A DNA stretch of 64,000 bases from a virus (lineage: Duplodnaviria > Caudoviricetes): the IMG/VR virus record IMGVR_UViG_3300022305_000561; one strand, given 5' to 3'. Under the pieces are notes generated by a model that worked only from the letters and a program-made list of their open reading frames with translations, ran no database searches and was not told the origin of the DNA. Shown one piece after another: positions 4,363 to 60,960 of the stretch; positions within the stretch are counted from its first letter, which is position 1, and the number at the start of each line of letters is the position of its first letter. A program made the position numbers and the translations under genes.

Positions 4363-4460
4363 TATAAATAGTAATAGGTGTTACTCGCGGATAGCCGTCC
4401 CAGTAACTCTAATCATTCTTACATTAATCAAGGACTAATATGACCAGCATAGATATGTAT
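4363..4460 (+). repeat. conserved endonuclease-leader module, copy A
   Basis: TATAAATA; hairpin GTTACT-CGC-GGA-tagccg-TCC-C-AGTAAC (4380-4407); TCTAATCATTCT; AAGGA; ATGACCAGC. Confidence 0.9.
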
Positions 4461-5264
4461 ACTAAAGCTCACGAGGAATTTTTAGTATTAAACTTCAAAT
4501 CAAATACCACATTTACCACTACGAAGGGTTCATTTTCTGGAATAAGAACAAAACATTTCACCGAAAATTATCATAAAGTCGAACACATTTGTAATAAGTA
4601 CCACATACAACTAAATTTAGACAATATCAGAGAAGTTTGTTGGAGATTAACCAACAACGACTTTTCAAAAAAATTATGCTCTCATTGTTTAACTGATACT
4701 GTTAATTTTAGAGATGATCACAAAATATGGTACAGATTTTGTTCTACATCTTGTTCAACTCAACATAGAGATAATTCTACTAGGAAGGGATTTGCTACTA
4801 TTGATGGCAGAATTAAAGCATTGGAAACAATACAAGATCGTTATGGGGTACAACATCAATCTCATATACCAGAAGTATTTGAAAAAACTCAGAATTCTAG
4901 ATACAAGACTTATTCGTTATTATCCCCATCTAATAAAGAGTGTAGAGTACAAGGATACGAAAGATTTGTAGTTCCTAAATTATGGGAAACGTATGGTGAA
5001 ATGGATGTTATAATTAATAAAAAAGAAATTCCTAAGATTTATTATTTCTACAATAGACGAAGGAAATATTATCCAGATGCATTTGTACGATCAACAAATA
5101 CTATTATAGAAGTTAAATCTACATATACTATAAAATGCGAATTATTGATACCCAAGATGGAATCTTGTATAAGTCTTGGGTATAACATTAAAGTATATCT
5201 ATATGATAAGGGTAAAACTAGAATATTATCATTAAATGATGTTAAGAATATGATTCTTAATTAA
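4440..5264 (+). CDS. putative homing endonuclease, PD-(D/E)xK type with Zn-finger
   Basis: CSHC..FCSTSCS; C-terminal YYPDAF..IIEVKS; oriented opposite to flanking genes. Confidence 0.75.
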   Translation: MTSIDMYTKAHEEFLVLNFKSNTTFTTTKGSFSGIRTKHFTENYHKVEHICNKYHIQLNLDNIREVCWRLTNNDFSKKLCSHCLTDTVNFRDDHKIWYRFCSTSCSTQHRDNSTRKGFATIDGRIKALETIQDRYGVQHQSHIPEVFEKTQNSRYKTYSLLSPSNKECRVQGYERFVVPKLWETYGEMDVIINKKEIPKIYYFYNRRRKYYPDAFVRSTNTIIEVKSTYTIKCELLIPKMESCISLGYNIKVYLYDKGKTRILSLNDVKNMILN

Positions 5265-5276
5265 CATACACCCAAC

Positions 5277-5426
5277 TCATTCTTCTATTTCAAATTCATC
5301 ATCCGTTAATAGAGGGGAACCGCAACAGGGGCAATGGCAGATTTCTTCAATAGATACATCAGAAGAACTTACTGAAATCATCCCTTGTGCATCACAAATA
5401 TCACAGTTAAATAGTTTTTTAATCAT
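5277..5426 (-). CDS. small Zn-ribbon protein (49 aa)
   Basis: MIKKLFNCDICDAQG..CHCPCCGSPL; RBS AAGGAAGG; below the ORF-track cutoff. Confidence 0.6.
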   Translation of the reverse strand: MIKKLFNCDICDAQGMISVSSSDVSIEEICHCPCCGSPLLTDDEFEIEE

Positions 5427-5438
5427 TTTCCTTCCTTG

Positions 5439-5858
5439 TTATTTTTTATCGCACCAAGATGCCTTTTTATCACCAAAGTAAGGTCTTGCATATCCCTTTT
5501 TGACCAATTCTTCAGATAAACTTTTACCGTCAAGTAATACATCACCTAACACACGTCCACCATACTTATCCCATTTTACTAATGAAACTTGTTGTTTTTT
5601 GCTATCAGCAACCATTTGTTTAGTGAACTTCGATGCTGCTTCACCTAATGTTGCTTCTTCAGGACACAATGCCCTAAAACCCTTTTCAGGAGTATCTACA
5701 CCCAATACGCGAATTGATAACACAGGTTTCAATGGCGCAGGTAAAAATGGTACTTGAAATTCTACTGTATCACCATCGATAACTCTTGTAATTGGGTAAT
5801 CATAAATTTCAGCAGATACTGAAGTTGATAACAATAATAACATTAATAATTTTTTCAT
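5439..5858 (-). CDS. thermonuclease (SNase-like) with signal peptide
   Basis: RVIDGDT, IRVLGVDTPE, DKYGGRVLG, LVKKGYA. Confidence 0.9.
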   Translation of the reverse strand: MKKLLMLLLLSTSVSAEIYDYPITRVIDGDTVEFQVPFLPAPLKPVLSIRVLGVDTPEKGFRALCPEEATLGEAASKFTKQMVADSKKQQVSLVKWDKYGGRVLGDVLLDGKSLSEELVKKGYARPYFGDKKASWCDKK

Positions 5859-5864
5859 ATTTTC

Positions 5865-6104: not shown

Positions 6105-6106
6105 AT

Positions 6107-8809
6107 CTACCCGTGACAGGCAAGACAGGATTCTTTACTCACATTAACCCCAGACTCACTTCGTATATAGTAAAGACCTTTGATGTATGGGTCTAAGAAT
6201 GCAGTTTTGTGAACTTCAGATATATATTCTTCTGATTCATCTGAACTAAAGAACAAATTGATAGATTGACCTTGGTCAATGAACCGTTGCCTTGCAGATG
6301 CCAATCGTAATATAACTAACTGATTTATCTCAAAGGCAGTTTTGAATACCTCTTTTTCTTCATCAGTCAACCAATCAACGTGTTGAACAGAACCATTGTT
6401 TGCAATAATATCCTTTACAGTTTCTTCTGAGTATATATTCTTCTCTTTCATTATCTTTAGTAAAGAAGGATTAACTCTATCTACTTTACCTGCTGATGTA
6501 TTTTGCACATAAGCATTTTTGTAGATTGGTTCAATACCTTGAGAAACAGAACCACATATCAATGCAGAACTTAGGTTAGGGGCAATGGCGATTCTATGAG
6601 TATTTCTTAACCCGTAACCCTTACACCAAAATGGTTCACCTAGTTCTTGTGCCATCCACTGACTTGCTCTTAGAGTTTCTTCATGTAGATGTTTGAAGAT
6701 TTCAATGTTCTTATAGTGAGCATCCATTGATTCAAAAGAAATCATATGGTCTTGTAGATAAGTGTGAAAACCTAACATACCTAAACCTAATGCTCTGCTC
6801 TTCTCAGCAAACCGAACAACCTTTTCCATACCTTTTGTGCCTTTGCCAATCTCAATCAAGTCTTGGTTAACGCAATCTAGGAATACTGTAGCCACAAACA
6901 CCGCATCAGTATCTTTCCATTCATCATATAGACTTGCATTCATTGAAGATAACACACAAGAAAATGTATGGTCTTCATCCGAAGTTAAATGAATCTCATT
7001 GCAATTATGTACCAATATTCCAGAACATTGTAAATACTCTGAATCTTGTGACGAGGTTATTATATTGAAATTATGGTTATCTTCAACTGTTAGATCATAT
7101 ACAGATTCAACCCCTTCAAAAATAATGTCCGTTACATATAGAGACTTTACCGAATACACATCTTTCTTTTCTGGTATCACATAGTCATTTCTGATATATT
7201 CTTCAGGAACTATATCATTAACAACCATATACCTAAGATTCTCTATAGAACCACCAAATCTATTTTTAGAAAAACTCTTAGGCATTCTAGAGTCTAATTT
7301 CATTAAGTTTCCTATCGAAATCCTAGCACCAATTTCGTATAAAGATTTAGCGTATTCAAAAATATCTAAATTAGTTAAACCTAAATATCTACCGTTGGCT
7401 GTTAGGGTTGACGCAGAACTCTTATTTTTGGAATATGCATCAACATCAAATACTTTATAACATGCATTATTAATGCCAGAAAATTCCTCACCAGTCTTTA
7501 GACGATGTTCATTCTTTTCCAATACTTGTAGATTATCTATACCATCATAAGCAATATTTTCTATATGATCTATATGATATCCATTAGGAACCTCTCCCTT
7601 AGTATATTTCCATATCAATGAATGTTGTTTAGCATGTCCATTCGTTGTTGAGTTTATATGTCTATATTTTCTAGTGTCACCCAAAGAAGTAAAAAATGTT
7701 TGTAATTCTTTTCCTGCTGATAATGATGCTTCAATATAGCCGCCAGCTTTTAGAGCAATTTTATGTTCTGGAGTACTTTTAAAAGTAGATCCATCCGATA
7801 GAACTACTCGAATAACTTGATATTCTCCTGTTTTAAATGCAATAGCAGATTTTATTTCATTTACCCAAATTCCCTTATTCTCATTCCATCTAGATGAATA
7901 TACAGGAAATTTATATTTGCCTTCAGATTCATATGCTAAATGTGCAATTGAAACTGCATTTCTACCATCTGCCACAGCAACCATCGTATCAGCAGAAAAG
8001 CAAAGATTACTTGCCTTAACGGTAAAGTTTTTATCCTTATATATTTGAGGACTTTGTCTATTAATTTTATCAATGAAGTTGAAATATCCCTTACCTGTAA
8101 TCATCTTTAGCTTTAATGCTTTTTGATATCTAAGAATAGCATCAGCATCTTCTGCTTCTAATCTAGCAATAAACGCATCGGTTATATTCCAACCTATATT
8201 AGCATCGTCTGGGGATTTGCTAATGTGATTCACAAGCTCAAAAAAATCATCATGATCTATTTCAATGTAACCTGCCCAAGCACCACGTCTTTGAGATCCT
8301 TGACTGATGTCTCTTGCCATTTGAACAAAGTCTTTGAATACAGGTAATACGCCTGAAGCTCCGCCTTTGATACCATTTATCTTAGATCCTCTAGGTCTAA
8401 TAGATCCTAAATAACTTGAAGTTCCAAATCCATTTTTACTTAATATTGCTGCTTCTTTTTGAGCATCATAGAAAGAGTATACAGAGTCTTCTACTACTCC
8501 ACCTGAACAACTTACAGGACAACCTTTACCTGTACCCATATTAGATAACACAGGAGTAGATGCAGCCAAGTAACCTTTCCAAAACAACTCAAAGAACTTA
8601 GCTTCCCAATAGAAAGGCTCGTTTGTATATTGTGATGCATGTCTAGCAATTCTTGAGTATACTGTCTTTAAATCAGGGTATTGAGCTGAAAGATAGTTTT
8701 CCTTGAGCATTTGATATGCTGCAGTTGTAACCCAAGATGGAAGTTTACCTTCTTCTTGAAGTTGTTTGCGTTCTTCGCCAAGTTCATCGTAAATGCTTAA
8801 CTCTACCAT
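6107..8809 (-). CDS. nrdA: class I ribonucleotide reductase alpha subunit, intein-containing
   Basis: TPVLSN, VSC, SQGSQRRGA, SNL[intein]CNEI, AIAPN, DQGQSINL, C-terminal CLACHG. Confidence 0.95.
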   Translation of the reverse strand: MVELSIYDELGEERKQLQEEGKLPSWVTTAAYQMLKENYLSAQYPDLKTVYSRIARHASQYTNEPFYWEAKFFELFWKGYLAASTPVLSNMGTGKGCPVSCSGGVVEDSVYSFYDAQKEAAILSKNGFGTSSYLGSIRPRGSKINGIKGGASGVLPVFKDFVQMARDISQGSQRRGAWAGYIEIDHDDFFELVNHISKSPDDANIGWNITDAFIARLEAEDADAILRYQKALKLKMITGKGYFNFIDKINRQSPQIYKDKNFTVKASNLCFSADTMVAVADGRNAVSIAHLAYESEGKYKFPVYSSRWNENKGIWVNEIKSAIAFKTGEYQVIRVVLSDGSTFKSTPEHKIALKAGGYIEASLSAGKELQTFFTSLGDTRKYRHINSTTNGHAKQHSLIWKYTKGEVPNGYHIDHIENIAYDGIDNLQVLEKNEHRLKTGEEFSGINNACYKVFDVDAYSKNKSSASTLTANGRYLGLTNLDIFEYAKSLYEIGARISIGNLMKLDSRMPKSFSKNRFGGSIENLRYMVVNDIVPEEYIRNDYVIPEKKDVYSVKSLYVTDIIFEGVESVYDLTVEDNHNFNIITSSQDSEYLQCSGILVHNCNEIHLTSDEDHTFSCVLSSMNASLYDEWKDTDAVFVATVFLDCVNQDLIEIGKGTKGMEKVVRFAEKSRALGLGMLGFHTYLQDHMISFESMDAHYKNIEIFKHLHEETLRASQWMAQELGEPFWCKGYGLRNTHRIAIAPNLSSALICGSVSQGIEPIYKNAYVQNTSAGKVDRVNPSLLKIMKEKNIYSEETVKDIIANNGSVQHVDWLTDEEKEVFKTAFEINQLVILRLASARQRFIDQGQSINLFFSSDESEEYISEVHKTAFLDPYIKGLYYIRSESGVNVSKESCLACHG
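7004..8002 (-). mobile_element. contiguous intein (333 aa) with HNH-type endonuclease in nrdA
   Basis: Starts CFSADT, has block B TPEHKI and internal HIDHI..NLQVL..EH, ends VYDLTVEDNHNF..ILVHN/C. Confidence 0.92.
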
Positions 8810-21409: not shown

Positions 21410-22441
21410 TTATTGGTCCTTAAAGTATTCTACCTCACGTTCATGTTTCTCTGCCGCTTCTTTAGAATCAAATGTGCCTAAGTTCTTACCAGTCTTTCTA
21501 GATACTAATCTCCACTTATCACCAAAATTGACAATATGCTCAGCTAGGTAGAAGTCTTTGAATGATACTAACGACTCACCCAATACAGCATTAATCTTAT
21601 GAAGAGCATTAACTTTCTCTGCACCTTTAGGAGTGCCAATCTCTCCCGATTTTACAATTATCATTGAGCTGAATACGCCTTTGATTCTGTTCTTACTTCT
21701 AGGGTTCTTAATATTCTTCTTAACTTGTTTCAATAGAGTATCAAAGTCAACATCAAGGTCATACTTGTTTAGTATCTTTTTGATATCATCAAAGTTTCTA
21801 CTTTTCCAAACTACTGTTCTACTTTTCTGTTTGAATGAATCTGGTTCATAAACTACATGACGTAATTGAAGCTCTATACTAGATAGGTTGAACTCATACT
21901 CTTCATCTTTAGGTAATTCTGTTGGTGCATGAATACCCATCTTAGCAAACAGAGTTTTCAATGGTTGCTCAATAGTAGCAACTTTAACTAACCCTAATAT
22001 CAAACCTTGTTTCTCTGCAGCAAAGTCAAGAAATATCTTTTTGAAGTCTGCTTCAGATTTATCAAGTGCTATAATATTATCGATCTGTACTGAATAATTT
22101 ATATTTGGACAATGATACCTAACAGTGACTATCTCGCCAGTGTTGTTAAATTTCTTACCTTTATGCTTTTCTGAAGAAAATGGAACTATGACTGCATCTG
22201 AATATTTTGAAAAAAATACACCCATCTTTTTCTTAACTGTTGCTTTATCATCAGGAGAATTAACGTGTACTATCAAATCTACATCTCCAAACTCAGTTTT
22301 GGATAGATTAGAGTTATATGATCCAGATGGTTCCATAGAAACAAATCCAGGGAATTGTTTGATTATTTTCTCATAAGAAGATAATACCTGCTTAAAGTGT
22401 TCTCTACTCATTATTTTTGAGCCACCAGTGCTTCCCGACAT
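21410..22441 (-). CDS. Pol-beta-superfamily nucleotidyltransferase
   Basis: SGSY..FGDVDLIV motif, later VQID; C-terminal SFKDFYLAE followed by a small domain. Confidence 0.7.
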   Translation of the reverse strand: MSGSTGGSKIMSREHFKQVLSSYEKIIKQFPGFVSMEPSGSYNSNLSKTEFGDVDLIVHVNSPDDKATVKKKMGVFFSKYSDAVIVPFSSEKHKGKKFNNTGEIVTVRYHCPNINYSVQIDNIIALDKSEADFKKIFLDFAAEKQGLILGLVKVATIEQPLKTLFAKMGIHAPTELPKDEEYEFNLSSIELQLRHVVYEPDSFKQKSRTVVWKSRNFDDIKKILNKYDLDVDFDTLLKQVKKNIKNPRSKNRIKGVFSSMIIVKSGEIGTPKGAEKVNALHKINAVLGESLVSFKDFYLAEHIVNFGDKWRLVSRKTGKNLGTFDSKEAAEKHEREVEYFKDQ

Positions 22442-22464: not shown

Positions 22465-22588
22465 TATAAATACATTATATAACTATTTATATAAAAAGTA
22501 AAGGTGTTAGTCACGGTTTGCAGACCTACTAACTCTAATCATTCTTCTATTAATTACAGGAACCAATATGACCAGCAAAACTATTTAT
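22465..22588 (+). repeat. conserved endonuclease-leader module, copy B
   Basis: TATAAATA 22465; hairpin GTTAGT-CAC-GGT-ttgcag-ACC-T-ACTAAC (22506-22533); TCTAATCATTCT; ATGACCAGC. Confidence 0.9.
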
Positions 22589-23320
22589 GCCTCAGAAAAA
22601 GCACTTCCTTATGTTTACCGATTAGATAATCCTATTACAGGCGAGTTCTATATCGGATACAGAGAAGCAAACAAAACTCCATCCCATATTGATCTACCAA
22701 AATATAGAACATCTTCTAAAATTATTGAACCAAAATTTGAAGAATTTAATACTACTATTATTGCCGAATTTTTTCTTGGTGATGATGCATATGATCACGA
22801 ACAACTATCTATTTTTGAAGAATGGAACAATCCACTATTACTTAACGAAAATTGTCGATATGGTTCTATTGGAAGATTTAAAACTCCAAAAATTAGAACC
22901 GATATTCATAATATAAGGATATCGAAGGCTAAAAGAGGATTTGCTATAATGAAAGATTTTGGGGGAATTCTAATTAAAGTTTCTGTCGATGATCCTAGAA
23001 TTACATCAGGCGAATTGGTTGGACATACTAAAGGTAAGGTAACTATGAGAGATGTTACTACTGGCGTCTGTTTACAGGTTTTCTTAGATGATCCTAGAAT
23101 TGCATCAGGCGAATTGGTAGGTGCAAATAAGGGTAAAGGACACCCTCATAAATCTAAAAGGACTAAAGAACACACTGAAAAATTAAAGAAAGCTAGAATA
23201 GGTATCCCTTTACAGAAATCCACTTGCCCCCATTGTAATTTTACTGGTGGTGGAGGCAATATGAAAAGGTATCATTTTGATAATTGTAAAAAAATTATTG
23301 ACGAAGAGCGGATTCCATAG
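22568..23320 (+). CDS. GIY-YIG homing endonuclease
   Basis: PYVYRL..GEFYIGYR..Y.TSS..E..LLN; duplicated DDPRI.SGELVG; C-terminal CPHC..MKRYHFDNCK. Confidence 0.85.
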   Translation: MTSKTIYASEKALPYVYRLDNPITGEFYIGYREANKTPSHIDLPKYRTSSKIIEPKFEEFNTTIIAEFFLGDDAYDHEQLSIFEEWNNPLLLNENCRYGSIGRFKTPKIRTDIHNIRISKAKRGFAIMKDFGGILIKVSVDDPRITSGELVGHTKGKVTMRDVTTGVCLQVFLDDPRIASGELVGANKGKGHPHKSKRTKEHTEKLKKARIGIPLQKSTCPHCNFTGGGGNMKRYHFDNCKKIIDEERIP

Positions 23321-35396: not shown

Positions 35397-35456
35397 TTAA
35401 ATTATTAAACATAACATATTATACTATTTTTCGACTAAAAAGTAAAGATAAAATTT

Positions 35457-35527: not shown

Positions 35528-35528
35528 T

Positions 35529-38175: not shown

Positions 38176-38815
38176 TCCCCAATTACCCCAACCTATCTCT
38201 GCATCAAACAACATTCCATCACCAAGAAAAAATATTTCGGCAAGACCACAAGATCAGATCCAATAAAGTATAAAGGATCAGGAGTTTACTGGGGTCTTCA
38301 TATCAACAAGCACGGTAGGCAGTTCGTCGAAACAATCTGGCTATCCGATCTATACTACGATACCTCTATAGTAGAACAAGCACTCCATTTCTCACACGAA
38401 AACAGCATCGTCGAATCAGACGATTGGGCAAATATAATCCCAGAAAATGGATTAGATGGAGCTCCTGCAGGTAATAAAAAAAGGACCACATTCTGATGAA
38501 ACAAAATCTAAAATATCTGCTGCTATGATAGGTAAGAAAAGAGGTCCCCAATCCGATGAGCGTAAATCTAAACAATCTATTGCTATAACAGGCAAAAAGG
38601 CTTCTGATGAAACAAAAGCTAAACAATCTGCTGCTAAGGTAGGTAAGAAGAAAGGTCCACATTCAGACGACCATAAAGAAAAATTATCTGCTGCTATGAT
38701 AGGTAAGAAGAAAGGTCCTCCTTCTGACGAAACTAAGGCAAAAAGAGCAGTAACTAGAGCTGCTAATAAAGCAGCTCGTCTATTGTTAAAAGAATTAATC
38801 ATCAACGATTTGTAA
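38155..38815 (+). pseudogene. GIY-YIG-like endonuclease with NUMOD3-like repeats, frameshifted at an A7 run (38476-38482)
   Basis: TYLCIKQH..KYFGKT..YKGSG.YW..ENGLDG, then KKGPHSDETK repeats in the +1 frame. Confidence 0.75.
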
Positions 38816-38816: not shown

Positions 38817-39908
38817 CTAAAAGAAGTCATCAAGTGTCGCCTTCTCCTCTAATACCCATCCCATTGGATCAATAATATTCCCTAGAGGATCCAAGAATAC
38901 CTTTTCAAACTGATAATCATAATCCACATATTTGTGAAGCCCAAACTCAACTGGCAACTCAGATGGAAATGCTATCACATTCTCTTTGATTGTGTTGGGT
39001 TTTTTGAGATATATGAACTTGATCTTATCCCCAGACTTGATAGGTGGATATTTGCTTGTCAACCCCAATTCTTTAAGAAGATGATTATACAACAATGCTC
39101 CTCTAACATGAATCGGACAACCTTTAGCATAGATCGATACGTTACTACTATATTCAGCAACACCATTCACACCTCTTGGAAATGCTATATCCTCAATAGG
39201 AATACTCGTAAACTCTTTTCTAGCCAATTCAATGAACTTGATAAGGTCACCATTAGTTCCGTCAAGGATAACGCCTATAGTTGACTTCAGTTTATCTCTA
39301 ATTGCCTGTGGTGTTGAAGACTTTACGATTTCCAAACCCATAATCTTAAGTTTAGGTTGGTCATATTGAACGCCCTCAGAGTTATGAACTCTAAGAATAT
39401 ACTTCTTCTTTCTACACCAAACACCCTTATCAGCCAGAACTTCTCGCTTCATCTGCATCTTGTTTTGAAATGCATTCATATAAGATGCTAGATCAGCATA
39501 AGACTTTTCAATGATTGGAGTTATAACTTGACTGCAAAACTTATCCATGAACTTAATCTTTTCATCAGTTGTTTTACCAACTTGAGTTTGTTCAACTAAA
39601 GTTTCTAATGCTAGGTAAACTGAGTCAGTATCAATCGCAATGATATAATCCTTATCAACAGTCTTCATTGATGTGTTCATATACAAATTAAGAGTATTGG
39701 CGATCCACTTGATCGAAAGTTGACCAGACACAGTAACACTCTCTGCCATTCTCAAATCATAGTATCTAAAGTATGCATTACCCAATGCTCCATATGCTGA
39801 GTTCAAAGCAATCTTCAAAGCCATCTGAAGATTAGTCAGCCGTGAGATTTCTTTCCCTGTACTAACTTTCAACTTTAATAAATCTGAATCACTCATTTCT
39901 TCAAACAT
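38817..39908 (-). CDS. 43: B-family DNA polymerase C-fragment (gp43B)
   Basis: [30 protein letters not shown]-terminal clamp-binding LDDFF. Confidence 0.95.
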
Positions 39909-39965
39909 AAAATCTCCAATAATAAAGTTATATTATACTATAAATCATAATAAAAGTAAATAGTG

Positions 39966-40076
39966 AGTTTCCAATTCTTATAAATAGTAATAAACAAAAA
40001 AAATGCCAATCACGATGCGTCAACAAAATAGGTGCAGGAAACAGTATGAAAAGATGGCATTTTGATAACTGTAAGT
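39966..40076 (+). pseudogene. internally deleted endonuclease element between gp43A and gp43B
   Basis: Leader 5' part (AGTTTCCAATTCTTATAAATAG..TGCCAATCACG) joined to codons G.GNSMKRWHFDNCK, the C-terminal motif seen in ORFs 22568 and 36143. Confidence 0.75.
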
Positions 40077-40078
40077 TA

Positions 40079-41542
40079 TTACAACCCTCTTCTACTTAAC
40101 TCAGCCTTTATATTTTCATATTTTTGTTCTTCATCTAACATTTGTCTTTTGAATCCAACGCGATTGTTATACATTGTTTCCATTAAACTAGGCAAAAATC
40201 CTTGCTTATCATTCTTATAACACCATCCATTAGCTGAGACAGATAATCCTGTCTCAGGAATAGGTTCTTTCTTAAGCAATCCCTCAATAGTAAGGTTTAA
40301 TCTCGTATCAGCAATCATCTCAGGACTGATGTTATATTGACGAATTAGTGAAGGATATAAACTTGCCAAATCGAACGATGCTACCCATTTATGCATACCC
40401 TTTATAGGATCTTTGACGTATGCACCCTCAAACGCTTCACCTTTAGAATGATGTTCATTGTTAGGAATAACAACTTTCTTCTTCAACAAATCGTTATAGA
40501 TGATAGCATCCCATAGCTTCACAGGACTAAACGCATCATTATAGTTAATCTTTGCTGTATAAGCCATCGTTAGATGTAACTCAATCAACCTTAACTTATC
40601 TTCTAACTTATCAACTATGTCAACATCTTTTATGTTGTAGTCGACGAACAACTCAAAGTCTTTTGTATAGAAGTCCTTGAATGATGCAAACTGACTATGA
40701 TCAACTTTCTTTTCGTCTAACTCAACAAAGCCAATATGGTCAAGTTTATAAGATTCTTGAGTAGTGAATGTGTATTTCTTATAAAGAACGATGTAATCTA
40801 ATGAAGATATACCCACCAGATCAAACATTAGTTCTTCAGTACCACGAATATTAATTTTCTTTTCGTTAACAATATTCCAAGGTGATAACTTCTTATAATC
40901 ATCACCAAGAACCTTTTTGATACGATTGACTAAGTAAGGAATATCAAACAAGTCAGTATTCCAACCTGTGATAACATCAGGCATATTACATTGCCAATGA
41001 GTCAAGAACTTCCTCAATAAATCCTGTTCATTCTTACACAAGACATAGTTGTTTGCAAACTTACCTGTATATGGTCTTGAACCAAAGGTTTTATACTCTT
41101 TAGACTTGTTATCTTGGATAGTGATTAGCAGAATCTCTTCAGCTGCATACTTAGGTTCTGGAAAGGCATCGGCTTCAGTTGCAGTTTCAATATCGATTGA
41201 AACTATCTTCATCAAATCTGAATCGAAGATTATATCTTCAGGATGAGTCTCAGAGATATACTGATAAGCATAGTTAGTTTGACCAAAGATATTGAACGAC
41301 CCAACTCCCTCATAAGTTTTGATGAATTCCTTACAATCATTAATGTTTCCTGGTTTTATCTCATATGCTGGAATATCATTTAATGTAGACCATTCAGTGG
41401 GTACTGATGCAGTTTTAGTATTGGTTGTGTACAAGGTAGGATAAAAGTCTACCTTCTGTTTTTGCGGAAGTCCGTCCCGAATAGAACGAACTAAAAGTTG
41501 ACTGCCATATTGGAGACAGGATGTGTAGAATGATGTTGACAT
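40079..41542 (-). CDS. 43: B-family DNA polymerase N-fragment (gp43A: exonuclease plus motif A)
   Basis: DIET, GWN..FDIPY, YNIKDV, SFDLASLYPS; ends in the fingers domain. Confidence 0.95.
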   Translation of the reverse strand: MSTSFYTSCLQYGSQLLVRSIRDGLPQKQKVDFYPTLYTTNTKTASVPTEWSTLNDIPAYEIKPGNINDCKEFIKTYEGVGSFNIFGQTNYAYQYISETHPEDIIFDSDLMKIVSIDIETATEADAFPEPKYAAEEILLITIQDNKSKEYKTFGSRPYTGKFANNYVLCKNEQDLLRKFLTHWQCNMPDVITGWNTDLFDIPYLVNRIKKVLGDDYKKLSPWNIVNEKKINIRGTEELMFDLVGISSLDYIVLYKKYTFTTQESYKLDHIGFVELDEKKVDHSQFASFKDFYTKDFELFVDYNIKDVDIVDKLEDKLRLIELHLTMAYTAKINYNDAFSPVKLWDAIIYNDLLKKKVVIPNNEHHSKGEAFEGAYVKDPIKGMHKWVASFDLASLYPSLIRQYNISPEMIADTRLNLTIEGLLKKEPIPETGLSVSANGWCYKNDKQGFLPSLMETMYNNRVGFKRQMLDEEQKYENIKAELSRRGL

Positions 41543-42230: not shown

Positions 42231-42539
42231 TTAGATAATCAATTTACGATCTGGAACTTGTATCAATGGTGCTTCTTCAGGTTCTTCAAACTTTGAATTA
42301 TATTCATCGATCAAACCTTGAACAGGAGTACCAACAGATACAATAGCAGATTTGTAGATATTGGTAGTACCATCAACATAAGGCATATATTGGGCTATCA
42401 TAATACCCATAGTGCCATCTTCTCTTGATTGAATAGCGATTTGAGCAGGATTTGATGTTGTGAATTGAAAGGCATCTTCATCGACAACAATAGCCAGTAA
42501 TTCTTCACCGCTTGATAATTTGAAACATTTTGTCGTCAT
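42231..42539 (-). CDS. conserved T4-like hypothetical protein
   Basis: KLSSGEELLA..NP..YMPY..Y..F. Confidence 0.65.
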   Translation of the reverse strand: MTTKCFKLSSGEELLAIVVDEDAFQFTTSNPAQIAIQSREDGTMGIMIAQYMPYVDGTTNIYKSAIVSVGTPVQGLIDEYNSKFEEPEEAPLIQVPDRKLII

Positions 42540-42605
42540 CTTATATTCCTAAGGTCAATATATTAAAATACTATTATACTATAAAGTTACATAAAAGTAA
42601 ATAGT

Positions 42606-42718
42606 GAGTTTTCAATTTGTATAAATAGATATAGGTGTTACTCACGGATGGCTGTCCTAGTAACTCTAATCATTCTACTATTAATTCAGGAACTAATATG
42701 ACCAGCACAAGTATATAT
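42606..42718 (+). repeat. conserved endonuclease-leader module, copy D
   Basis: TATAAATA 42620; hairpin GTTACT-CAC-GGA-tggctg-TCC-T-AGTAAC (42637-42664); TCTAATCATTCT; ATGACCAGC. Confidence 0.9.
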
Positions 42719-43408
42719 ACACCCTTTTTACCAGACCAATATTGCGTTTATCATACCACTTATTCCGGAAAACTTCTACCTCAAAACTATATTGGCTCAT
42801 CATCAGTAGACAATGTTCTAAATAAAAATTATCACGGTTCAGTGGTATCAGAACGATACAAGTCAATATGGTTATCTGAATTAAAACTCCATCCCGAACT
42901 GTTTTCAACAGTAATAGTATCTTACCACGATACCAGATCAAATGCAACATATAAAGAACTTCAGGTACAAAGAACATTAAATGTTGTTAAAAGCGAGTTA
43001 TTCGTCAATAGATCATATGCCTCCGTATATGGGTTTACCGATACAACATACACACCAGAAGAAAAAGAGGTAATGAGTAAGAAACTATCTACTGGACATG
43101 CTAATAGAACTCCTGAAGAAAAAGCAAAAACGAGTAAGAAAATGTCAGATGCGCGTAAAGGAAAAAAGCAATCAGAAGAACATATATCTAAAAGATCTGC
43201 TGCTAATACAGGACTAAAAAGATGTCCTCGTTCTGATGAGTATAGAACTAAACAATCTGTTGCACATACAGGTAGGAAAAGAGGTCCTCAATCGACAGAA
43301 CATAGGAATAAACTATCTTCTATATTCTTCTTCTTAATATCAACTAAGAAAAGTTATACTAAAAGAGCATTAACTAGATATTTTCCCGAGTTCAAGCAAT
43401 TTTATTAA
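42698..43408 (+). CDS. GIY-YIG homing endonuclease with NUMOD3-like repeats
   Basis: YCVYHTTY..NYIGSS..Y.GS..KE..Q..N; KKQSEEHISKRS repeats; start taken at MTSTSIY. Confidence 0.85.
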   Translation: MTSTSIYTPFLPDQYCVYHTTYSGKLLPQNYIGSSSVDNVLNKNYHGSVVSERYKSIWLSELKLHPELFSTVIVSYHDTRSNATYKELQVQRTLNVVKSELFVNRSYASVYGFTDTTYTPEEKEVMSKKLSTGHANRTPEEKAKTSKKMSDARKGKKQSEEHISKRSAANTGLKRCPRSDEYRTKQSVAHTGRKRGPQSTEHRNKLSSIFFFLISTKKSYTKRALTRYFPEFKQFY

Positions 43409-43435
43409 AAAAAGGAGGTATAATATACCTCCTTT
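43406..43435. terminator. rho-independent terminator between convergent genes
   Basis: AAAAAAAGGAGGTAT-AAT-ATACCTCCTTT. Confidence 0.8.
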
Positions 43436-50515: not shown

Positions 50516-50585
50516 AATATATTATCTCTTTTTCAATTTATAAGTTATTATAAATGATAAAGTTCATATTGTCAACATTTATTTT

Positions 50586-50645
50586 TGGTGGAGATAATAG
50601 GGATTAAACCTATGACCTATGTAATGCTATTACACCGCAACTCTA
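50586..50645 (-). pseudogene. degenerate tRNA (3' half with T-arm and ACCA)
   Basis: AGGTC-ATAGG-TTTAATC-CCTAT-TATCTCC-ACCA; no complementary 5' acceptor strand. Confidence 0.5.
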
Positions 50646-50802: not shown

Positions 50803-50878
50803 TGGAGCGGACGACTGGGTACGATCCAGCAACATTCTGATTGGAAATCAGATACTCTACCAATTGAGTTACGTCCGC
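50803..50878 (-). tRNA. tRNA-Gly (TCC)
   Basis: GCGGACG/CGTCCGC acceptor, D-arm with TGG, TCTGA-TTTCCAA-TCAGA anticodon arm, encoded CCA. Confidence 0.9.
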
Positions 50879-55890: not shown

Positions 55891-56215
55891 TTACTTAATA
55901 TCCACTTGATGTAACTTAAGATCAAATTGCTCTTCTGAGTAGGCCTTAACTCTCTCGGCAAAGTGATTCAAAGTATGATTCATAGATGACTTATAGGAAA
56001 GGTCATCTGCCACATCGTAAAGCACACAGGATGATTTGCCTTCCCTCAACCTAAGACCTCGTCCTATAGATTGGAAGTTTCGTATTTTACTCTTAGTTGG
56101 ACTAGCAAAGATAATATTCTCAATAGATGGAATATTAATACCAGTAGAGAAAGTTGCGTCAATAGGACGCAATAATAATTGCGCCCCTGACCTCCTGTAT
56201 TTTTTCTGGTAACAT
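55891..56215 (-). CDS. uvsW: UvsW helicase C-fragment, interrupted by a 4-nt insertion containing a stop
   Basis: ATG overlaps the HNH stop (TAATG); reads MLPEKIQEVRGAIIIASY-[TGAC]-ATFSTGINIP..QSIGRGLR. Confidence 0.7.
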
Positions 56216-57087
56216 TAAGATAGCCTTTTAGATTTCGATTTATCCTTCACCCAATAAAATCCTATTGGGCACTCTTTTGTTTTTGTTTTATTTATACCAT
56301 CTGTCCAAATCCTTAAACCTACTCTAGAGGATTTTTGCCTATCCCTAAAATCCTGATCCTCCCACATCGTTTTTATTTTTTCTCCAGCATCTAATCGCTT
56401 ATCAATATTTGTATTGACTATTAACATCTTTTCATTAAAAGCTATTTTATATTCATCATCCCTTTCATCCCATACTTTTTGTTGAGAAATAGAGGATTTT
56501 ATTTTTTCTTCTGGTCTATTCTTAAACTCAGACTGATATTCTGAAAACGATATTCTACGATCATCAGTCCAAGAATCCTGGGATGATTGTTTATGCTTAG
56601 CCTTTGTTTCAGGATTTAACATGTGTATGTGTATAGATGTTGATATACCATTTTTCACTTGTTCTCTTGCTATGATAGCTCGCTTTGCTCTGAATCCATC
56701 GTATTTTTCGGTATCTTTTTTTAGAACTTCCCACGCTGATGTAGAACCCTTAGACATCATATCTCTATATTCTTCAGAAGTCAAATCACTTCTCATAAAC
56801 CTAAGAGGGTTTATGAATTTATTTATAGGATATGCCTGAGCCAACAGTTTATGTGCCTGAACGTGGGTTGAATATTCTAATTTTACTAGATTCCAAGAAC
56901 AATCTATAAACTGAGGGAATATGCTCTTAGGTAATATGTGATGTATTTCGGCATAAACGCCCTCATTGCATACTTTTGTTATTAAACTAAGATATTCTTC
57001 TAGATATGATAAAGATTCTGGAGCACCTAATTCTTCATCTAATTTTGATTGAAAAAAAATATTATTATATATACTTATGCTGGTCAT
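56215..57087 (-). CDS. HNH homing endonuclease inserted in uvsW
   Basis: EIHHILPKS.FP..WNLVKL..HVQAHKLL; start MTSISIY. Confidence 0.85.
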   Translation of the reverse strand: MTSISIYNNIFFQSKLDEELGAPESLSYLEEYLSLITKVCNEGVYAEIHHILPKSIFPQFIDCSWNLVKLEYSTHVQAHKLLAQAYPINKFINPLRFMRSDLTSEEYRDMMSKGSTSAWEVLKKDTEKYDGFRAKRAIIAREQVKNGISTSIHIHMLNPETKAKHKQSSQDSWTDDRRISFSEYQSEFKNRPEEKIKSSISQQKVWDERDDEYKIAFNEKMLIVNTNIDKRLDAGEKIKTMWEDQDFRDRQKSSRVGLRIWTDGINKTKTKECPIGFYWVKDKSKSKRLS

Positions 57088-57178
57088 AATGGTTTCCATT
57101 GTTGAATGATTAGAGTTAGTGGGTTCCGAGGCCGCGACTAACACCTTTTACTATACTATTTATAAGAATTGGAAACTC
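57067..57178 (-). repeat. conserved endonuclease-leader module, copy E
   Basis: AGTTTCCAATTCT-TATAAATA; hairpin GTTAGT-CGC-GG..CC-C-ACTAAC (57142-57115); TCTAATCATTC; ATGACCAGC. Confidence 0.9.
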
Positions 57179-57184: not shown

Positions 57185-57354
57185 ATGAATCCAGACAAAC
57201 TTGAATATCAATGCCCCTATTGCCACGAGTGGATATTGAAAACTCAATATAGCAACCACGAAAACTTGCATATCAATGAATGGTTAATGCACCAACAACA
57301 CTAGATGAACTAGAACGAAGATTAAGACCTTTGGGATTGTTTGACGAAAGATAA
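57185..57354 (+). CDS. C2H2 zinc-finger micro-ORF divergent from leader copy E (39 aa; homologous tail out of frame)
   Basis: MNPDKLEYQCPYCHEWILKTQYSNHENLH, stop at 57304; shifted frame reads LDELERRLRPLGLFDER*, matching the 37870 paralog. Confidence 0.65.
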
Positions 57355-58725: not shown

Positions 58726-59166
58726 CTAACCACCAGCCAAGAATGCTTTGTATTGAATACAGTTTTTGATTGACCAAGTTCTGTCAGCAATAGATTTCAA
58801 GATTGATTCAAGCAGATAGATTGTTGCAGTGAGGTATTCAAGTTTCAAATCCATTGCGGTGATATGTTCATCACCCTTTAGAAACTCATCCATCTCATTT
58901 TTCAAGGGTTTGGTATACTGCCATTGTTCCCAACCAAGATCAAGAAGTTCTTGTCTGGATAGTTCACCACGGTAGTATCTAAACTTATTCTTTCTAAGGG
59001 TATTGTAATCAACCTTAGTTTTGCTGAATCGCAACTTAGTATTCATCAACAATGATATGTACTTAGCATGTAATTTAGAAGTCTTTACAGATTCATCATC
59101 AAGATGATTAGAGGAAATAATACAGTCCATATCCCATAGGTTTTGTATTTCATCAATTGTGGCCAT
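58726..59166 (-). CDS. uvsY: recombination mediator UvsY
   Basis: W..DC.I..LHAKY..YY.G..R...IKN.I..F.AG. Confidence 0.88.
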   Translation of the reverse strand: MATIDEIQNLWDMDCIISSNHLDDESVKTSKLHAKYISLLMNTKLRFSKTKVDYNTLRKNKFRYYRGELSRQELLDLGWEQWQYTKPLKNEMDEFLKGDEHITAMDLKLEYLTATIYLLESILKSIADRTWSIKNCIQYKAFLAGG

Positions 59167-59180
59167 AATATTCTCACTTA

Positions 59181-59699
59181 TTATATAAATTTATAGTATG
59201 TATACTCGAATGTAGCGTTGCAAGTAATGTACTGAACATCGTTTGATGTAGTAATGAATGTGATAGCACCTAATGATGTTGGTATCAAATCAACAAATTG
59301 AACGGTTTGTACAGGCATATTATTAGATCCAAGAACCTCCAAGATACCATCTGAACTGTTTTTTGCTAAGTCAGATAGGAATGGAGTTTTATTACGATTC
59401 TGCCAACTTATGTATTGATCATATGCCTCAGGGAATCCTAATGCAACTAACCAGTCAGATATGGCTAGGTAGTTTGCCATATTTTCATCAACAATAAACT
59501 CTATGTTCAAGGTCTCATATGTTAATTGAACACCAGGAAGTTTGAGTTGAACGAATGGAGTTTCGTATACAACGTTAGGTAGATTGATTCCAGGAATGCT
59601 AACTTGTTGAGCGAAGTATGTTAGTTCTGGCAACTTTTTAATTGCGAACTGAAACCCATTTGGGGATAGAGGATTAAGATTTGCAGGAAGAGTAAACAT
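59181..59699 (-). CDS. 3: tail tube terminator (gp3-like)
   Basis: N.LSPNGF..P...YF.Q...PGI..PG....E.L...F.VDE...NY..W. Confidence 0.8.
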   Translation of the reverse strand: MFTLPANLNPLSPNGFQFAIKKLPELTYFAQQVSIPGINLPNVVYETPFVQLKLPGVQLTYETLNIEFIVDENMANYLAISDWLVALGFPEAYDQYISWQNRNKTPFLSDLAKNSSDGILEVLGSNNMPVQTVQFVDLIPTSLGAITFITTSNDVQYITCNATFEYTYYKFI

Positions 59700-59714
59700 A
59701 GTGTATATCCTTAT

Positions 59715-60866
59715 TTAGATATTAGTATTTATAAGGGATTTGCTGGCTCTTGGTTTCATACCCTTTTTCCAAGATGGATTTGGCTCGTCTCCCTTTGGAA
59801 CATAGAAATTTGTAATACCATCATTATAAACAACAGCGTCTTTCCTTTGCTTTGTAGAGGCAGCAGTTTGTGCTGACCTATCTCTAGGGAGTTGTCCTTT
59901 TATCCACTCACCACCAGGATCCTGTTTGAACTTCTTCATAATAGATCCATTGTTATAAAAACTAGAACCAGTATTAACCTCAGCAGCCAATTTAGATCTT
60001 TTTACATTTTGGTTCTGTTTGTTTTCTGTATAAGGAACAATCAATCCAAGTTCTTGTATGACTGGGTCTGAAGTAGAAATGTATCCGTATTTGGTAACTC
60101 CATCAGGATAGTAGAAAGTGAACTTACCTTTCATTTTGGTAGATTGTTTTCCATTACCTTGTAATCTGATATATTCATAATCTTCAGGGGACTTGGGATT
60201 ATGCCAACCTTGATTAAGCAATTCTGTATATTCGTCTGATTGGATTTGTATTGTTTTAACTTGATCAAGTAAATATAGTTTAATAGTTCTACAATGATCT
60301 TTAGATCTAGCCATAAGTTCTTTAGATTCATCAGTCATAGTTAAACCAGCATTATTTCCAACTAAGTTCAACTCTTGTATAGTTGTGTCATCTTTATGTA
60401 AATAATATTTGGCTCCATTAGAATCTTTATAAGTAGCCATATTTGAATGTTCTAATGATCTTTGGATAGATGCATCTTCTCTAAGTTTTGATAAAGTTAG
60501 TCTAATATATTTTGTAGGTATTTTTCTATATGAAAGTTTATCGTTTGTAGATTCATTGAAATTAAATAACATACACTCTAATGCCCTTGATTGAGAACCG
60601 CCAAAAGTTTTCCATAGAATAACGTGAGCTATAATATGTTGATGTGCCGTTAGGTTAATAATATTCCAAGAAAAAAGTATTTTGTTAGTGTATTCTGGAA
60701 ATAAGTCTTTTGCTTTAGGATAGATATGATGTCCTTCAGTATAAACCCAATCTATATTATTTGAATTTTTTAATCTACACCCATCAATGAACTTTAGATA
60801 TCTATTGAGATAATGTGCATTGTGGGGTTTACTTGAAAGGATTGTATAAATATTATTGCTGGACAT
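59715..60866 (-). CDS. HNH homing endonuclease
   Basis: KPHN.HYL.RY; EGHHIYPK..FP..WN..LTAHQH.IAH.ILWK; YNNG/YNDG..W.KG repeats. Confidence 0.85.
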   Translation of the reverse strand: MSSNNIYTILSSKPHNAHYLNRYLKFIDGCRLKNSNNIDWVYTEGHHIYPKAKDLFPEYTNKILFSWNIINLTAHQHIIAHVILWKTFGGSQSRALECMLFNFNESTNDKLSYRKIPTKYIRLTLSKLREDASIQRSLEHSNMATYKDSNGAKYYLHKDDTTIQELNLVGNNAGLTMTDESKELMARSKDHCRTIKLYLLDQVKTIQIQSDEYTELLNQGWHNPKSPEDYEYIRLQGNGKQSTKMKGKFTFYYPDGVTKYGYISTSDPVIQELGLIVPYTENKQNQNVKRSKLAAEVNTGSSFYNNGSIMKKFKQDPGGEWIKGQLPRDRSAQTAASTKQRKDAVVYNDGITNFYVPKGDEPNPSWKKGMKPRASKSLINTNI

Positions 60867-60960
60867 AGTAGTTCCTTGTAATTACGATTAGAATGTTTAG
60901 AGTTAGTAGGTCTGACCACCGTGACTAACACCTATTACTATTTATACAAATCAAAAACTC
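60845..60960 (-). repeat. conserved endonuclease-leader module, copy F
   Basis: TATAAATA 60946-60939; hairpin GTTAGT-CAC-GGT-ggtcag-ACC-T-ACTAAC (60929-60902); TCTAAACATTCT; ATGTCCAGC. Confidence 0.9.

Follow-up and report, generated by a model that had tools for sequence, protein, structure and literature searches.

Six endonuclease genes in the window (the whole 64,000-nucleotide stretch of viral DNA analysed here) start with copies of one module, a cassette of ~100-150 bp that is carried by free-standing homing endonuclease genes in an uncultured clade of T4-like myoviruses. The module contains a covarying hairpin, and the sequence evidence suggests that the RNA which folds is transcribed from the non-gene strand. 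We tentatively propose that two facing late promoters yield an antisense RNA of ~60-85 nt over the nuclease start, a small RNA that would probably restrain the nuclease.

Anatomy of the cassette

Complete copies lie at the gene starts 4440+, 22568+, 38155+, 42698+, 57087- and 60866-, and consist, in this order, of the late promoter TATAAATA, 9-33 nt, a bulged hairpin, CTCTAA(T/A)CATTC, an RBS and ATG(A/T)CCAGC. The hairpin is built of a 6-bp outer stem, a 5'-side C-R-C whose R pairs with a single Y, a 3-4-bp inner stem and a variable loop. Codons 5-8 (TAT.TATA) are the late promoter in an inverted copy, with Tyr7 invariant. The window also holds two relics without an endonuclease ORF, both ending inside the hairpin.

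Module A, 4363-4461, plus strand: late promoter 4363-4370, hairpin 4380-4407, 12-mer 4407-4418, ATG 4440; inverted box 4454-4461 (TATGTATA; antisense TATACATA, imperfect)
Cargo A, 4440-5264, plus strand: homing-endonuclease-like ORF; Pfam DUF7487; PD...EVK motif near the C-terminus
Module B, 22465-22589, plus strand: distal late promoter 22465-22472, hairpin 22506-22533, 12-mer 22533-22544, ATG 22568; inverted box 22582-22589 (TATTTATG; antisense CATAAATA)
Early promoter at module B, 22474-22502, minus strand: sigma70-type TTTACT-17-TATAAT, divergent, abuts B; serves the minus-strand gene 21410-22441
Cargo B, 22568-23320, plus strand: homing endonuclease, PHROG 314/655/12434
Relic G, 35474-35525, plus strand: late promoter and 5' two-thirds of a GCCAAT-class hairpin, cut off after the loop; no endonuclease ORF
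Module C, 38067-38176, plus strand: late promoter 38067-38074, hairpin 38092-38122 (GCCAAT class; the A-run before it becomes ATTTTTTG after the antisense hairpin), 12-mer 38122-38133, ATG 38155; inverted box 38169-38176 (antisense AATAAATA)
Cargo C, 38155-38815, plus strand: frameshifted endonuclease gene, 38155-38496 plus 38456-38815
Relic H, 39932-40078, plus strand: between two DNA polymerase fragments; early promoter 39932-39960 (minus strand, divergent), late promoter 39979-39986, half hairpin 40005-40025
Early promoter at module D, 42573-42601, minus strand: TTTACT-17-TATAAT, divergent; serves gene 42231-42539
Module D, 42620-42719, plus strand: late promoter 42620-42627, hairpin 42637-42664, 12-mer 42664-42675, ATG 42698; inverted box 42712-42719 (TATATATA)
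Cargo D, 42698-43408, plus strand: GIY-YIG-type homing endonuclease, PHROG 10820/314
Bidirectional terminator, 43411-43435: directly past cargo D
Module E, 57066-57164, minus strand: late promoter 57164-57157, hairpin 57142-57115, 12-mer 57115-57104, ATG 57087; inverted box 57073-57066 (plus strand: TATATATA, 5 nt, G57079)
Cargo E, 56215-57087, minus strand: HNH-type homing endonuclease, PHROG 655/12434; downstream of a helicase fragment
Module F, 60845-60946, minus strand: late promoter 60946-60939, hairpin 60929-60902, variant 12-mer 60902-60891 (CTCTAAACATTC), ATG 60866 (ATGTCCAGC); plus-strand box 60845-60852, a perfect TATAAATA, then TTATT and G60858
Cargo F, 59715-60866, minus strand: HNH-type homing endonuclease; directly downstream of the major capsid gene and its terminator

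The six modules and two ORF-less remnants of the preliminary description are all present where it placed them (remnants at 35474-35525 and 39979-40025); its late promoter next to the hairpin does not hold for copy B, where 33 nt separate the exact upstream TATAAATA from the stem. Relic H is an endonuclease gene with an internal deletion, and its 3' remnant (MKRWHFDNCK...) matches the final codons of cargo B. As to the cargo, an earlier PD-(D/E)xK assignment of the gene at 4440 would fit DUF7487 with its PD...EVK motif, the GIY-YIG call for cargo B is based on the motif YVYRL...FYIGY, and the HNH call for E and F derives from PHROG families only. The gene at 38155 is an endonuclease gene as described, with the additional detail that it is frameshifted into two pieces, the second of which (38456-38815) carries NUMOD3.

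Spread and boundaries

The module was found in 140 copies with 67 distinct hairpins, on uncultured viral and metagenome contigs. Almost all copies head homing-endonuclease ORFs (GIY-YIG, HNH, and DUF7487 with a PD-ExK motif) and a few are decayed, and the proposal of a portable expression cassette heading nucleases of different catalytic families is supported. Hairpin class, linker type and cargo are mosaic among the copies. Retrieval patterns required ATGACCAGC, so that the conservation of these nine bases is partly imposed. A search of Rfam and cultured phages for the module gave no match; to call it undescribed is nevertheless too strong, because Dassa et al. (2009) partly anticipated the hairpins.

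An occupied and an empty site could be compared, as had been proposed. In a 90%-identical relative (L017) the entire cassette is an 853-bp insertion, against 31 bp in the window.

Empty site, 50553-50583: L017 has here an opposite-strand early promoter, late promoter, hairpin and endonuclease gene

The TTTACT-17-TATAAT of the L017 cassette replaces the TTGACA-17-TATAAT of the empty site; by this comparison the predicted divergent early promoter of the neighbouring host gene moves with the cassette. No conserved 3' end or flanking repeat was found among the copies, and the lack of a conserved 3' end argues against a two-ended mobile cassette. Nothing spoke in favour of an ssDNA mobility signal or a nuclease-bound, guide-like RNA.

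Covariation and the folded strand

Run on the window with filters off, a covariance model trained on 50 distinct copies recovers the six complete modules (E 2e-17 to 5e-15) and no other site. The reported covariation was confirmed and supports structural selection on the hairpin: 93.8-95% of cells are paired, compared with 27-44% in controls with partners slid, both sides vary in 9 of 11 pairs, and the observed score was matched by none of 500 shuffles. A larger alignment of 58 distinct rows left this picture unchanged. The bulged hairpin has an energy of ~ -8 kcal/mol on each strand.

The preliminary description had assumed that the gene strand folds, whereas the mismatch pattern favours the opposite strand. 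Over 10 core pairs in the 67 distinct hairpins, the sense strand has 649 Watson-Crick pairs, 18 A.C, 2 G.U and 1 other; each A.C there reads as G.U on the antisense strand. At the R:Y position 33 hairpins have A-U, 24 G-C, 10 A.C and 0 G.U, with the A.C cases spread over at least 6 stem classes. At the loop-closing position the sense strand shows the reverse bias, with 14 U.G versus 4 A.C. A stretch with at least 5 T in 8 nt comes after the antisense hairpin in 58/80 contexts and after the sense hairpin in 0/80; the antisense tail is T-rich with no clean U-run, and its T-richness is partly forced by the adjoining A-rich sense promoter. The gap between sense promoter and stem is only 2-5 nt in 24/79 contexts, which places the predicted start of the late mRNA within the 5' arm and argues that an intact sense hairpin is not required.

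An inverted late promoter and a predicted antisense RNA

TA[TC]NTATN occupies a fixed position in the coding sequence. Across 62 cargo proteins from several families of nuclease, Tyr7 alone is invariant, and codon 5 ends in T in 80/80 contexts, regardless of the amino acid. The shared M-T/S-S-x-x-I/M-Y, noted before at the protein level, is largely a nucleotide-level constraint, made up of the inverted late-promoter box and CAGC. The antisense strand carries a perfect NATAAATA in 47/80 contexts and an imperfect box in ~40% of copies (TATATATA, TATAAGTA, TATACATA), window copies A, D and E included. CA[GA]C stands exactly 5 nt ahead of the box in 75/80 contexts, a spacing that is kept where the start codon has moved (TATCAGC-ATGAA-TATTTATAC), so that the predicted antisense +1 is G in 76/80. 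This geometry agrees with the T4 late box at -13 to -6 (PMC2988020).

In the proposed mechanism, a gp55-type late promoter on the top strand would produce the endonuclease mRNA, and the backward-pointing late box inside codons 5-8 would fire on the bottom strand. The antisense transcript would start at the G of the conserved GCUGG(U/A), cross the start codon, RBS and invariant 12-mer, and be ended or stabilised by the hairpin (whose best fold is on the antisense strand) with its U-rich tail. The resulting ~60-85-nt RNA, complementary to the endonuclease initiation region, would limit translation by pairing; it might also act in trans on other copies, since copies have conserved unpaired segments in common. 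Just past the hairpin, many copies have a putative sigma70-type early promoter for the neighbouring host gene, which moves along with the cassette.

Predicted antisense transcripts A-D, minus strand, from box geometry: 4372-4448, 22498-22576, 38084-38163, 42629-42706
Predicted antisense transcripts E and F, plus strand, from box geometry: 57079-57150, 60858-60937

Several points count against the antisense RNA. Both promoters are late, which is awkward for a timing logic; the hairpin is modest and bulged, its tail only T-rich and ~40% of the boxes imperfect; and the loop-closing bias is opposite.

Alternative explanations

A sense-strand leader, with the hairpin folded in the endonuclease mRNA itself, is unlikely. 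Near the 5' end the hairpin would protect the message from 5'-end-dependent decay, or it would combine with the invariant CUCUAAUCAUUC into a ribosome standby platform or an operator that a shared RNA-binding protein recognises. Such a leader would fit a hairpin that is always in gene orientation, 25-37 nt from the start codon, that the predicted late transcript holds whole in 6/6 window copies, and whose loop-closing U.G pairs suit the sense strand. The invariant single-stranded 12-mer and conserved C-R-C bulge resemble a protein recognition surface, and the translational operator of T4 gp43 is likewise a hairpin with a 3' tail. However, the core-stem wobbles are A.C on the sense strand (18 versus 2), predicted late starts fall within the 5' arm in 24/79 contexts, the inverted box and fixed CAGC spacing are left unexplained, and no candidate binding protein was found. 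A classic T-even two-state switch appears very unlikely. Here the late box would pair with its codon 5-8 copy (helix P1) in read-through transcripts, P1 closing the initiation region in a compact fold, and late transcripts without the 5' arm would be translated. This design is established for I-TevI, segB and Aeh1 mobE (PMC2988022), P1 is in the minimum-energy folds of long transcripts of several copies, and it probably corresponds to the complementary motifs of Dassa et al. Position 1 of the sense promoter also correlates with the opposite coding base (G with C), GATAAATA promoters being paired with TATTTATC in 5/10 cases versus 3/68 otherwise (Fisher 5.6e-4, relatedness not corrected), and position -1 is complementary in 37/78 pairs against 26.5 expected; the position-1 correlation favours real pairing or an inverted repeat, and an independent antisense promoter could do without either. 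Yet folding revealed no RBS-sequestering switch: RBS and AUG are unpaired in the model, and opening the initiation region takes 4.5 kcal/mol in long (read-through) and 3.9 in late transcripts, a difference of only 0.6 that upholds the earlier statement that the hairpin does not occlude the RBS. P1 consists of 8-11 A-U pairs around a ~90-nt loop, with a central mismatch in ~40% of copies, and most copies are divergent from the upstream gene, so that sense read-through should be rare.

The prevailing orientation bears on another explanation, which we regard as distinctly unlikely, namely an insulator with a replacement promoter, similar to PeSLs and without regulatory antisense RNA. The hairpin and T-rich tail on the host-gene strand, which the tail and wobble pattern suit, would stop or process transcripts crossing the endonuclease gene in antisense, and the early promoter just past the hairpin would restart the neighbouring host gene. 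The upstream neighbour is indeed on the opposite strand in 53/68 contexts, 28/83 have a sigma70-like promoter no more than 70 nt past the antisense hairpin, and the promoter of the L017 cassette substitutes for that of the empty site. However, co-directional copies (15/68, E and F among them) retain the hairpin, and E and F keep the box as well, perfect TATAAATA in F, which points to a function that belongs to the endonuclease itself. Termination does not require conserved bulges, an invariant 12-mer or a fixed start-codon distance, and in copy D a strong terminator is already present where the endonuclease gene ends. That the element acts as DNA, its hairpin extruding in ssDNA or as a cruciform and cargo being swapped by recombination, deletion or nuclease targeting, is highly improbable. 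Both window relics break off inside the hairpin, the copies are mosaic, and G.T is the best-tolerated mismatch in DNA too, so that the strand asymmetry is compatible with DNA; against these stand the absent conserved 3' end and flanking repeat, the strict orientation and spacing relative to the start codon and the lack of an HUH or integrase-type partner in view, and ordinary homing via double-strand-break repair explains the mobility.

Relation to known systems

Dassa et al. (2009, NAR 37:2560; PMC2677866) described, in the parts of the paper used here, 'fractured gene' loci of environmental phages in which free-standing GIY-YIG and Vsr-like endonuclease genes are preceded by hairpins with TATAAATA and two complementary conserved motifs. 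As in the window, the phages are T4-like environmental ones (freshwater ones included), genes are fractured (here gp41, UvsX, DNA polymerase and an RNR intein) and the hairpin outlasts a lost endonuclease; hairpins occur in 15/16 endonuclease 5' UTRs, 10 with TATAAATA. Those authors' reading differs, invoking Aeh1 mobE-like, RBS-controlling structures. Added here relative to that portion of text are the bulged C-R-C hairpin, invariant 12-mer, inverted codon 5-8 box, strand asymmetry and divergent early promoter. T-even I-TevI/II/III, segB and Aeh1 mobE (PMC2988022) likewise have a late promoter and RNA structure at the endonuclease 5' end, but their hairpins, in which the late promoter is embedded, sequester the RBS, whereas that of the module is free, and a single leader, with a structure that suits the opposite strand, is common to >100 genes from several families of nuclease. 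The stable hairpin just upstream of the free RBS of seg43 in Aeromonas phage 25 is similarly non-sequestering, its function being unknown according to the same review (PMC2988022).

For the antisense RNA, a functional precedent by analogy is CfrI of the T4-like cyanophage S-PM2, an antisense RNA detected by experiment (Millard et al. 2010, cited in PMC2984593) that begins inside the F-CphI endonuclease gene and runs back across its start. CfrI is ~200-225 nt and reaches into psbA, unlike the ~60-85 nt predicted here; a hairpin of the module type is absent from the F-CphI leader, no inverted late box lies where CfrI starts, and the covariance model does not hit the region (10 bits at best, E above 2). 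In IS10/Tn10 RNA-IN/RNA-OUT (PMC5006887), too, promoters face each other where the nuclease-type gene of a selfish element begins, and the initiation region is the complement of a short, structured antisense RNA (69 nt in IS10), whose action in trans gives multi-copy inhibition. The module has no sequence relationship to IS10/Tn10, uses phage late promoters, serves homing endonucleases rather than transposases, and its antisense RNA is a prediction. PeSL cassettes of T4-like phages (PMC2839356, PMC4122927) are short motifs with a stem-loop beside an early promoter, repeated in plastic genome regions and tied to modular gene exchange, and the bottom strand of many module copies has the same stem-loop then early promoter. 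PeSLs, however, border small ORFs of various kinds, their terminator stems are simple and GC-rich, and they lack late promoters, whereas the module is endonuclease-specific and reaches into the coding sequence.

Module copies in the window and covariation of the hairpin

The preliminary description had placed six modules at six gene starts, and two ORF-less remnants elsewhere, and all were found where it had put them. Each module consists of, in order, a late promoter, a bulged covarying hairpin, a 12-mer, the RBS, the ATG and an inverted late-promoter box in codons 5-8.

4440, + strand: ATG of endonuclease gene, copy A
22568, + strand: ATG of endonuclease gene, copy B
38155, + strand: ATG of endonuclease gene, copy C
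42698, + strand: ATG of endonuclease gene, copy D
57087, - strand: ATG of endonuclease gene, copy E
60866, - strand: ATG of endonuclease gene, copy F
35474-35525, + strand: relic G, truncated module copy without an ORF
39932-40078, + strand: relic H, truncated module copy without an ORF

A covariance model of 50 distinct copies, run on the window with filters off, found exactly the six sites. The claimed covariation of the hairpin held: in 50 distinct sequences 93.8% of cells are standard pairs, versus 27-44% when the 3' partners are slid, and both sides vary in 9 of the 11 pairs. None of 500 shuffles reached the observed covariation score, and a model-based alignment of 58 distinct rows is 95.3% paired. 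The stem, bulged and A/T-rich, belongs to a hairpin of 28-31 nt whose 5' side carries the invariant T-C-R-C-G, with two bulged C around an R that is paired to a single Y; the closing T-A pair is also invariant. Immediately 3' of the stem lies the invariant 12-mer CTCTAATCATTC, which loosens to YTCTAR in more distant copies. The element gAGTTTyCAATT, which had been described as opening the module, proved to be the spacer between the early and late promoters. A search of the window against Rfam at the gathering threshold gave a tRNA as the sole match and none at the module, and Rfam covariance models likewise left the module unmatched at three module-bearing loci at E up to 1.

Distribution and cargo

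The pattern '12-mer, N6-30, ATGACCAGC' matched 69 IMG/VR and 34 JGI metagenome stretches; a second pattern, with the coding sequence unconstrained, added no more than a few true copies. In total we collected 140 copies (67 distinct hairpins, 84 distinct contexts). One complete 210-kb viral genome has six copies. Cultured phages in INPHARED gave no match to the module with its surroundings by megablast or sensitive blastn.

Nearly every copy is followed by an ORF. All 62 distinct complete cargo ORFs share an endonuclease-type N-terminus and most match a homing-endonuclease family, including NUMOD3 (20), SegE-type GIY-YIG (10) and DUF7487 (9), with further matches to HNH models and to PHROG homing-endonuclease families 314 and 655. 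Cargo A contains a PD...EVK motif; a weak PDB sequence match of its residues 146-273 (gene 4440-5261) to mitochondrial TIM44 (E 5e-6) was set aside as spurious and probably compositional. Decayed copies are few, and show loss of the start codon, reduction to a 23-codon stub or, in one case, orphan status. An orphan copy, at 2888-2990 of contig L088, has the late promoter, an intact hairpin and the 12-mer, with the endonuclease-type start codon absent downstream. Back to back with module A lies a SegE-type GIY-YIG gene (3897-4343, - strand) without a module of its own, so the cassette is not used by every endonuclease gene of the phage.

An inverted late-promoter box inside the coding sequence

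TAT(T/A)TATA codes for the I/M-Y that the cargo proteins share; that this sequence is the late promoter in reverse complement had escaped the preliminary description. Tyr7 is the sole invariant residue of the 62 proteins, and codon 5 ends in T in every case, irrespective of the amino acid. A perfect NATAAATA stands at a fixed position on the antisense strand, that is, opposite the endonuclease-gene strand, in 47 of 80 contexts, where it is a predicted promoter; about 40% of the antisense boxes are imperfect. Exactly 5 nt ahead of the box is CA[GA]C (75/80 contexts), and this spacing is kept where the start codon has moved downstream; in those copies CAGC is thus untranslated. Late boxes of T4 lie at -13 to -6 (PMC2988020), which would put the predicted antisense start at the G of GCUGG, found in 76 of 80 contexts.

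The strand on which the hairpin folds

An A.C mismatch on the sense strand corresponds to a G.U wobble on the antisense strand. When ten core pairs were scored in each of the 67 distinct hairpins, read on the sense strand, there were 649 Watson-Crick cells, 18 A.C, 2 G.U and 1 other; a rough count of apparently independent events gave about 13 versus 2. The R:Y pair is A-U in 33 hairpins, G-C in 24, A.C in 10 and G.U in 0, with the A.C cases spread over at least six stem classes, as one would expect if a true RNA pair formed on the antisense strand. After the antisense hairpin, 58 of 80 contexts have five or more T in 8 nt; after the sense hairpin, 0 of 80 do. In 24 of 79 contexts a gap of only 2-5 nt separates the sense promoter from the stem, so that the predicted late mRNA would begin inside the 5' arm. 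Against the antisense strand, the loop-closing position has 14 U.G and 4 A.C, which favours the sense strand; the adjoining A-rich promoter in part accounts for the T-richness; and mean hairpin stability is equal (sense -8.1, antisense -8.2 kcal/mol), so stability alone chooses neither strand.

The unit that moves

The related contig L017, about 90% identical on both flanks, differs from the window at 50553-50583, where an insertion of 853 bp stands in place of 31 bp. It comprises, in order, an opposite-strand early promoter (TTTACT-17-TATAAT), the conserved AGTGAGTTTTCAATT, the late promoter, the hairpin and the leader, and its 3' limit is the stop codon of the endonuclease gene. At the empty site this host gene is served by another early promoter (TTGACA-17-TATAAT). 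A divergent early promoter of the L017 type adjoins copies B, D and H. The window has a tRNA gene at 50806-50878 (- strand; Rfam, 64.5 bits), and the 3' end of a second, tRNA-like sequence, at about 50585-50640, adjoins the right edge of the empty site.

Comparison of the six cargo genes revealed no conserved 3' end and no flanking repeats, and a two-ended mobile cassette was therefore rejected. In relic H the final codons of a B-like endonuclease survive, which marks it as an internal deletion. Small C-x2-C...H-x3-H ORFs (MNP(Y/D)KLEYQCP...) at 37870-38046 (- strand) and 57185-57304 (+ strand) diverge from modules C and E, and account for the extra ~60 nt of upstream sequence common to those two copies. 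This C2H2 micro-ORF is no fixed part of the module, since its homologues in L001 and L041, two other contigs, are found past the 3' end of the endonuclease gene.

Proposed facing promoters and alternative readings

Among the selfish elements of T4-like phages, homing endonucleases are the principal ones, and to our knowledge it is for only a handful of T-even genes that one understands how their expression stays tolerable. We favour a reading of the module as facing late promoters with an antisense RNA, because its features combine best on the bottom strand, which would read: late box, conserved start, complement of the initiation region, hairpin with a U-rich tail and, often, the early promoter of the host gene. 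The facing promoters may quite possibly, if a little short of probably, make a predicted antisense RNA of 60-85 nt (median 78 nt) that keeps the endonuclease in check; the imperfect antisense boxes temper this reading. At the 3' end of the RNA the hairpin would serve for stability or termination, while through the conserved unpaired segments the RNA of one copy could act on others, and the cassette would give the host gene its promoter anew. The gene next upstream is encoded on the other strand in 53 of 68 contexts; copies E and F, co-oriented with their neighbours, keep all features, which argues against a pure insulator.

A switch at the RBS was weighed on folds of the transcripts. As the preliminary description had it, the hairpin does not contain the RBS; in minimum-energy folds neither the RBS nor the AUG is paired. 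The cost of opening positions -13 to +5 falls from 4.5 kcal/mol for long transcripts to 3.9 for late ones and is 3.5 once the hairpin is left out, and over 48 folded contexts the opening energy of the initiation region shifts by 0.6 kcal/mol on average between long and late transcripts. Sequestration of the RBS, whether by the hairpin or by long-range pairing of promoter and codons, is thus unsupported by thermodynamics. Weak pairing of CAUUC(U) in the 12-mer with GGAA of the RBS appears in some folds, and the invariant 12-mer gives no covariation. We also considered a pseudoknot between the hairpin loop and CAGC, which was dropped on inspection by eye, and an antisense micro-ORF from an ATG within the reverse complement of the 12-mer, whose frame is not kept because hairpin lengths vary (28-31 nt).

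A live rival to the antisense RNA is that the promoter box and its inverted copy form a long-range helix, or act as an inverted repeat in the DNA. The two can pair in minimum-energy folds, and the late promoter does lie in the 5' arm of this long-range pairing with codons 5-8, which is untrue of the covarying hairpin in most copies (gap of at least 9 nt in 55/79). Covariation of box position 1 with the opposite base also keeps the rival live: G occurs with C in 5 of 10 cases versus 3 of 68 otherwise (Fisher 5.6e-4, relatedness ignored). Such a helix or repeat would, however, leave the RBS exposed.

The antisense reading can be extended, in a form that we regard as rather unlikely as a whole, to a family of small antisense RNAs for homing endonucleases. 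Each would run from the late promoter in codons 5-8 to the end of the hairpin and pair with the 12-mer, RBS and AUG of its own and all other copies, a multi-copy brake like that of IS10, with the early promoter of the host re-supplied. We know of no shared post-transcriptional control of this kind described for homing endonucleases.

In abundant uncultured phages a single portable cassette heads more than 100 endonuclease genes, which represent three or more catalytic types. With it comes a replacement promoter for the displaced host gene, which would explain how such genes can land harmlessly in either orientation. If the antisense reading is true, selfish nucleases and transposons have converged on one brake, Rfam would gain a defined RNA family, and the hairpin, YTCTAR and inverted late box would be a simple marker for annotating endonuclease genes and decayed relics in metagenomes.

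Comparison with known systems

By analogy, the closest mechanistic counterpart is RNA-OUT of IS10 (PMC5006887), with which the module shares a stable antisense stem-loop, here indicated by covariation, by wobbles that are G.U on the antisense strand (18 versus 2) and by a T-rich tail on that strand only; the predicted promoter in the 5' end of the gene would face the gene's own promoter. The antisense RNA CfrI, detected in phage S-PM2, has its start within an endonuclease gene (via PMC2984593); covariance model R1 gave no significant match to the CfrI / F-CphI leader region in a 25-kb stretch of S-PM2, where we found no hairpin and no inverted box.

The T-even hairpins reviewed by Edgell et al. 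2010 (PMC2988022) sequester the RBS, those of the I-TevI / mobE type pairing the Shine-Dalgarno sequence or the start codon, whereas the module leaves both unpaired; the review also lists an unexplained non-sequestering hairpin of seg43 in phage 25. In Dassa et al. 2009 (PMC2677866), hairpins with TATAAATA and two complementary motifs stand upstream of GIY-YIG and Vsr-like endonuclease genes at metagenomic fractured-gene loci, and the hairpin outlasts loss of the endonuclease. The window resembles those loci in having a hairpin and TATAAATA upstream of free-standing endonuclease genes, and split genes too. In some copies the bottom strand of the module has a stem-loop directly upstream of a sigma70-type early promoter, an arrangement that PeSL (PMC2839356, PMC4122927) resemble; a strict pattern finds it in 28/83 contexts, and it is present in copies B, D and H and the L017 insertion but not in E or F. 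PeSL, however, accompany diverse non-endonuclease ORFs and have a simple G/C-clamped stem, whereas the module has endonuclease-type ORFs and a bulged, A/T-rich stem.

The phage and its gene content

The window derives from a T4-like myovirus of ~34% GC, with a major capsid protein, scaffold, UvsY, gp41, split B-family DNA polymerase, ribonucleotide reductase and ligase; the capsid protein is at most 59% identical to pelagiphage, methylophage and cyanomyophage homologues, and the searches of cultured phages brought up no near relative. Several of its genes are split or interrupted.

6107-8809: ribonucleotide reductase large subunit (900 aa), with an in-frame intein carrying an HNH domain at residues ~281-581
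31545-36901: gp41 helicase and UvsX in pieces with intein halves
33226-34398: product with a Hint module at residues 299-367
35529-36146: product with an intein C-terminal segment first, then the UvsX C-domain
38817-39908 and 40079-41542, - strand: B-family DNA polymerase as two ORFs, with relic H in between

Between the gp41 pieces, at 33189-33196 (- strand), there is a late promoter with the module-type flank CCAATTCTTATAAATAGTAATA and without a hairpin, which may be a third relic. The stretch that separates the ligase gene from the following minus-strand gene holds a perfect palindrome, TATAAATA-TAA-TATTTATA (854-872), another late box that faces its own inverted copy, here with no endonuclease context.
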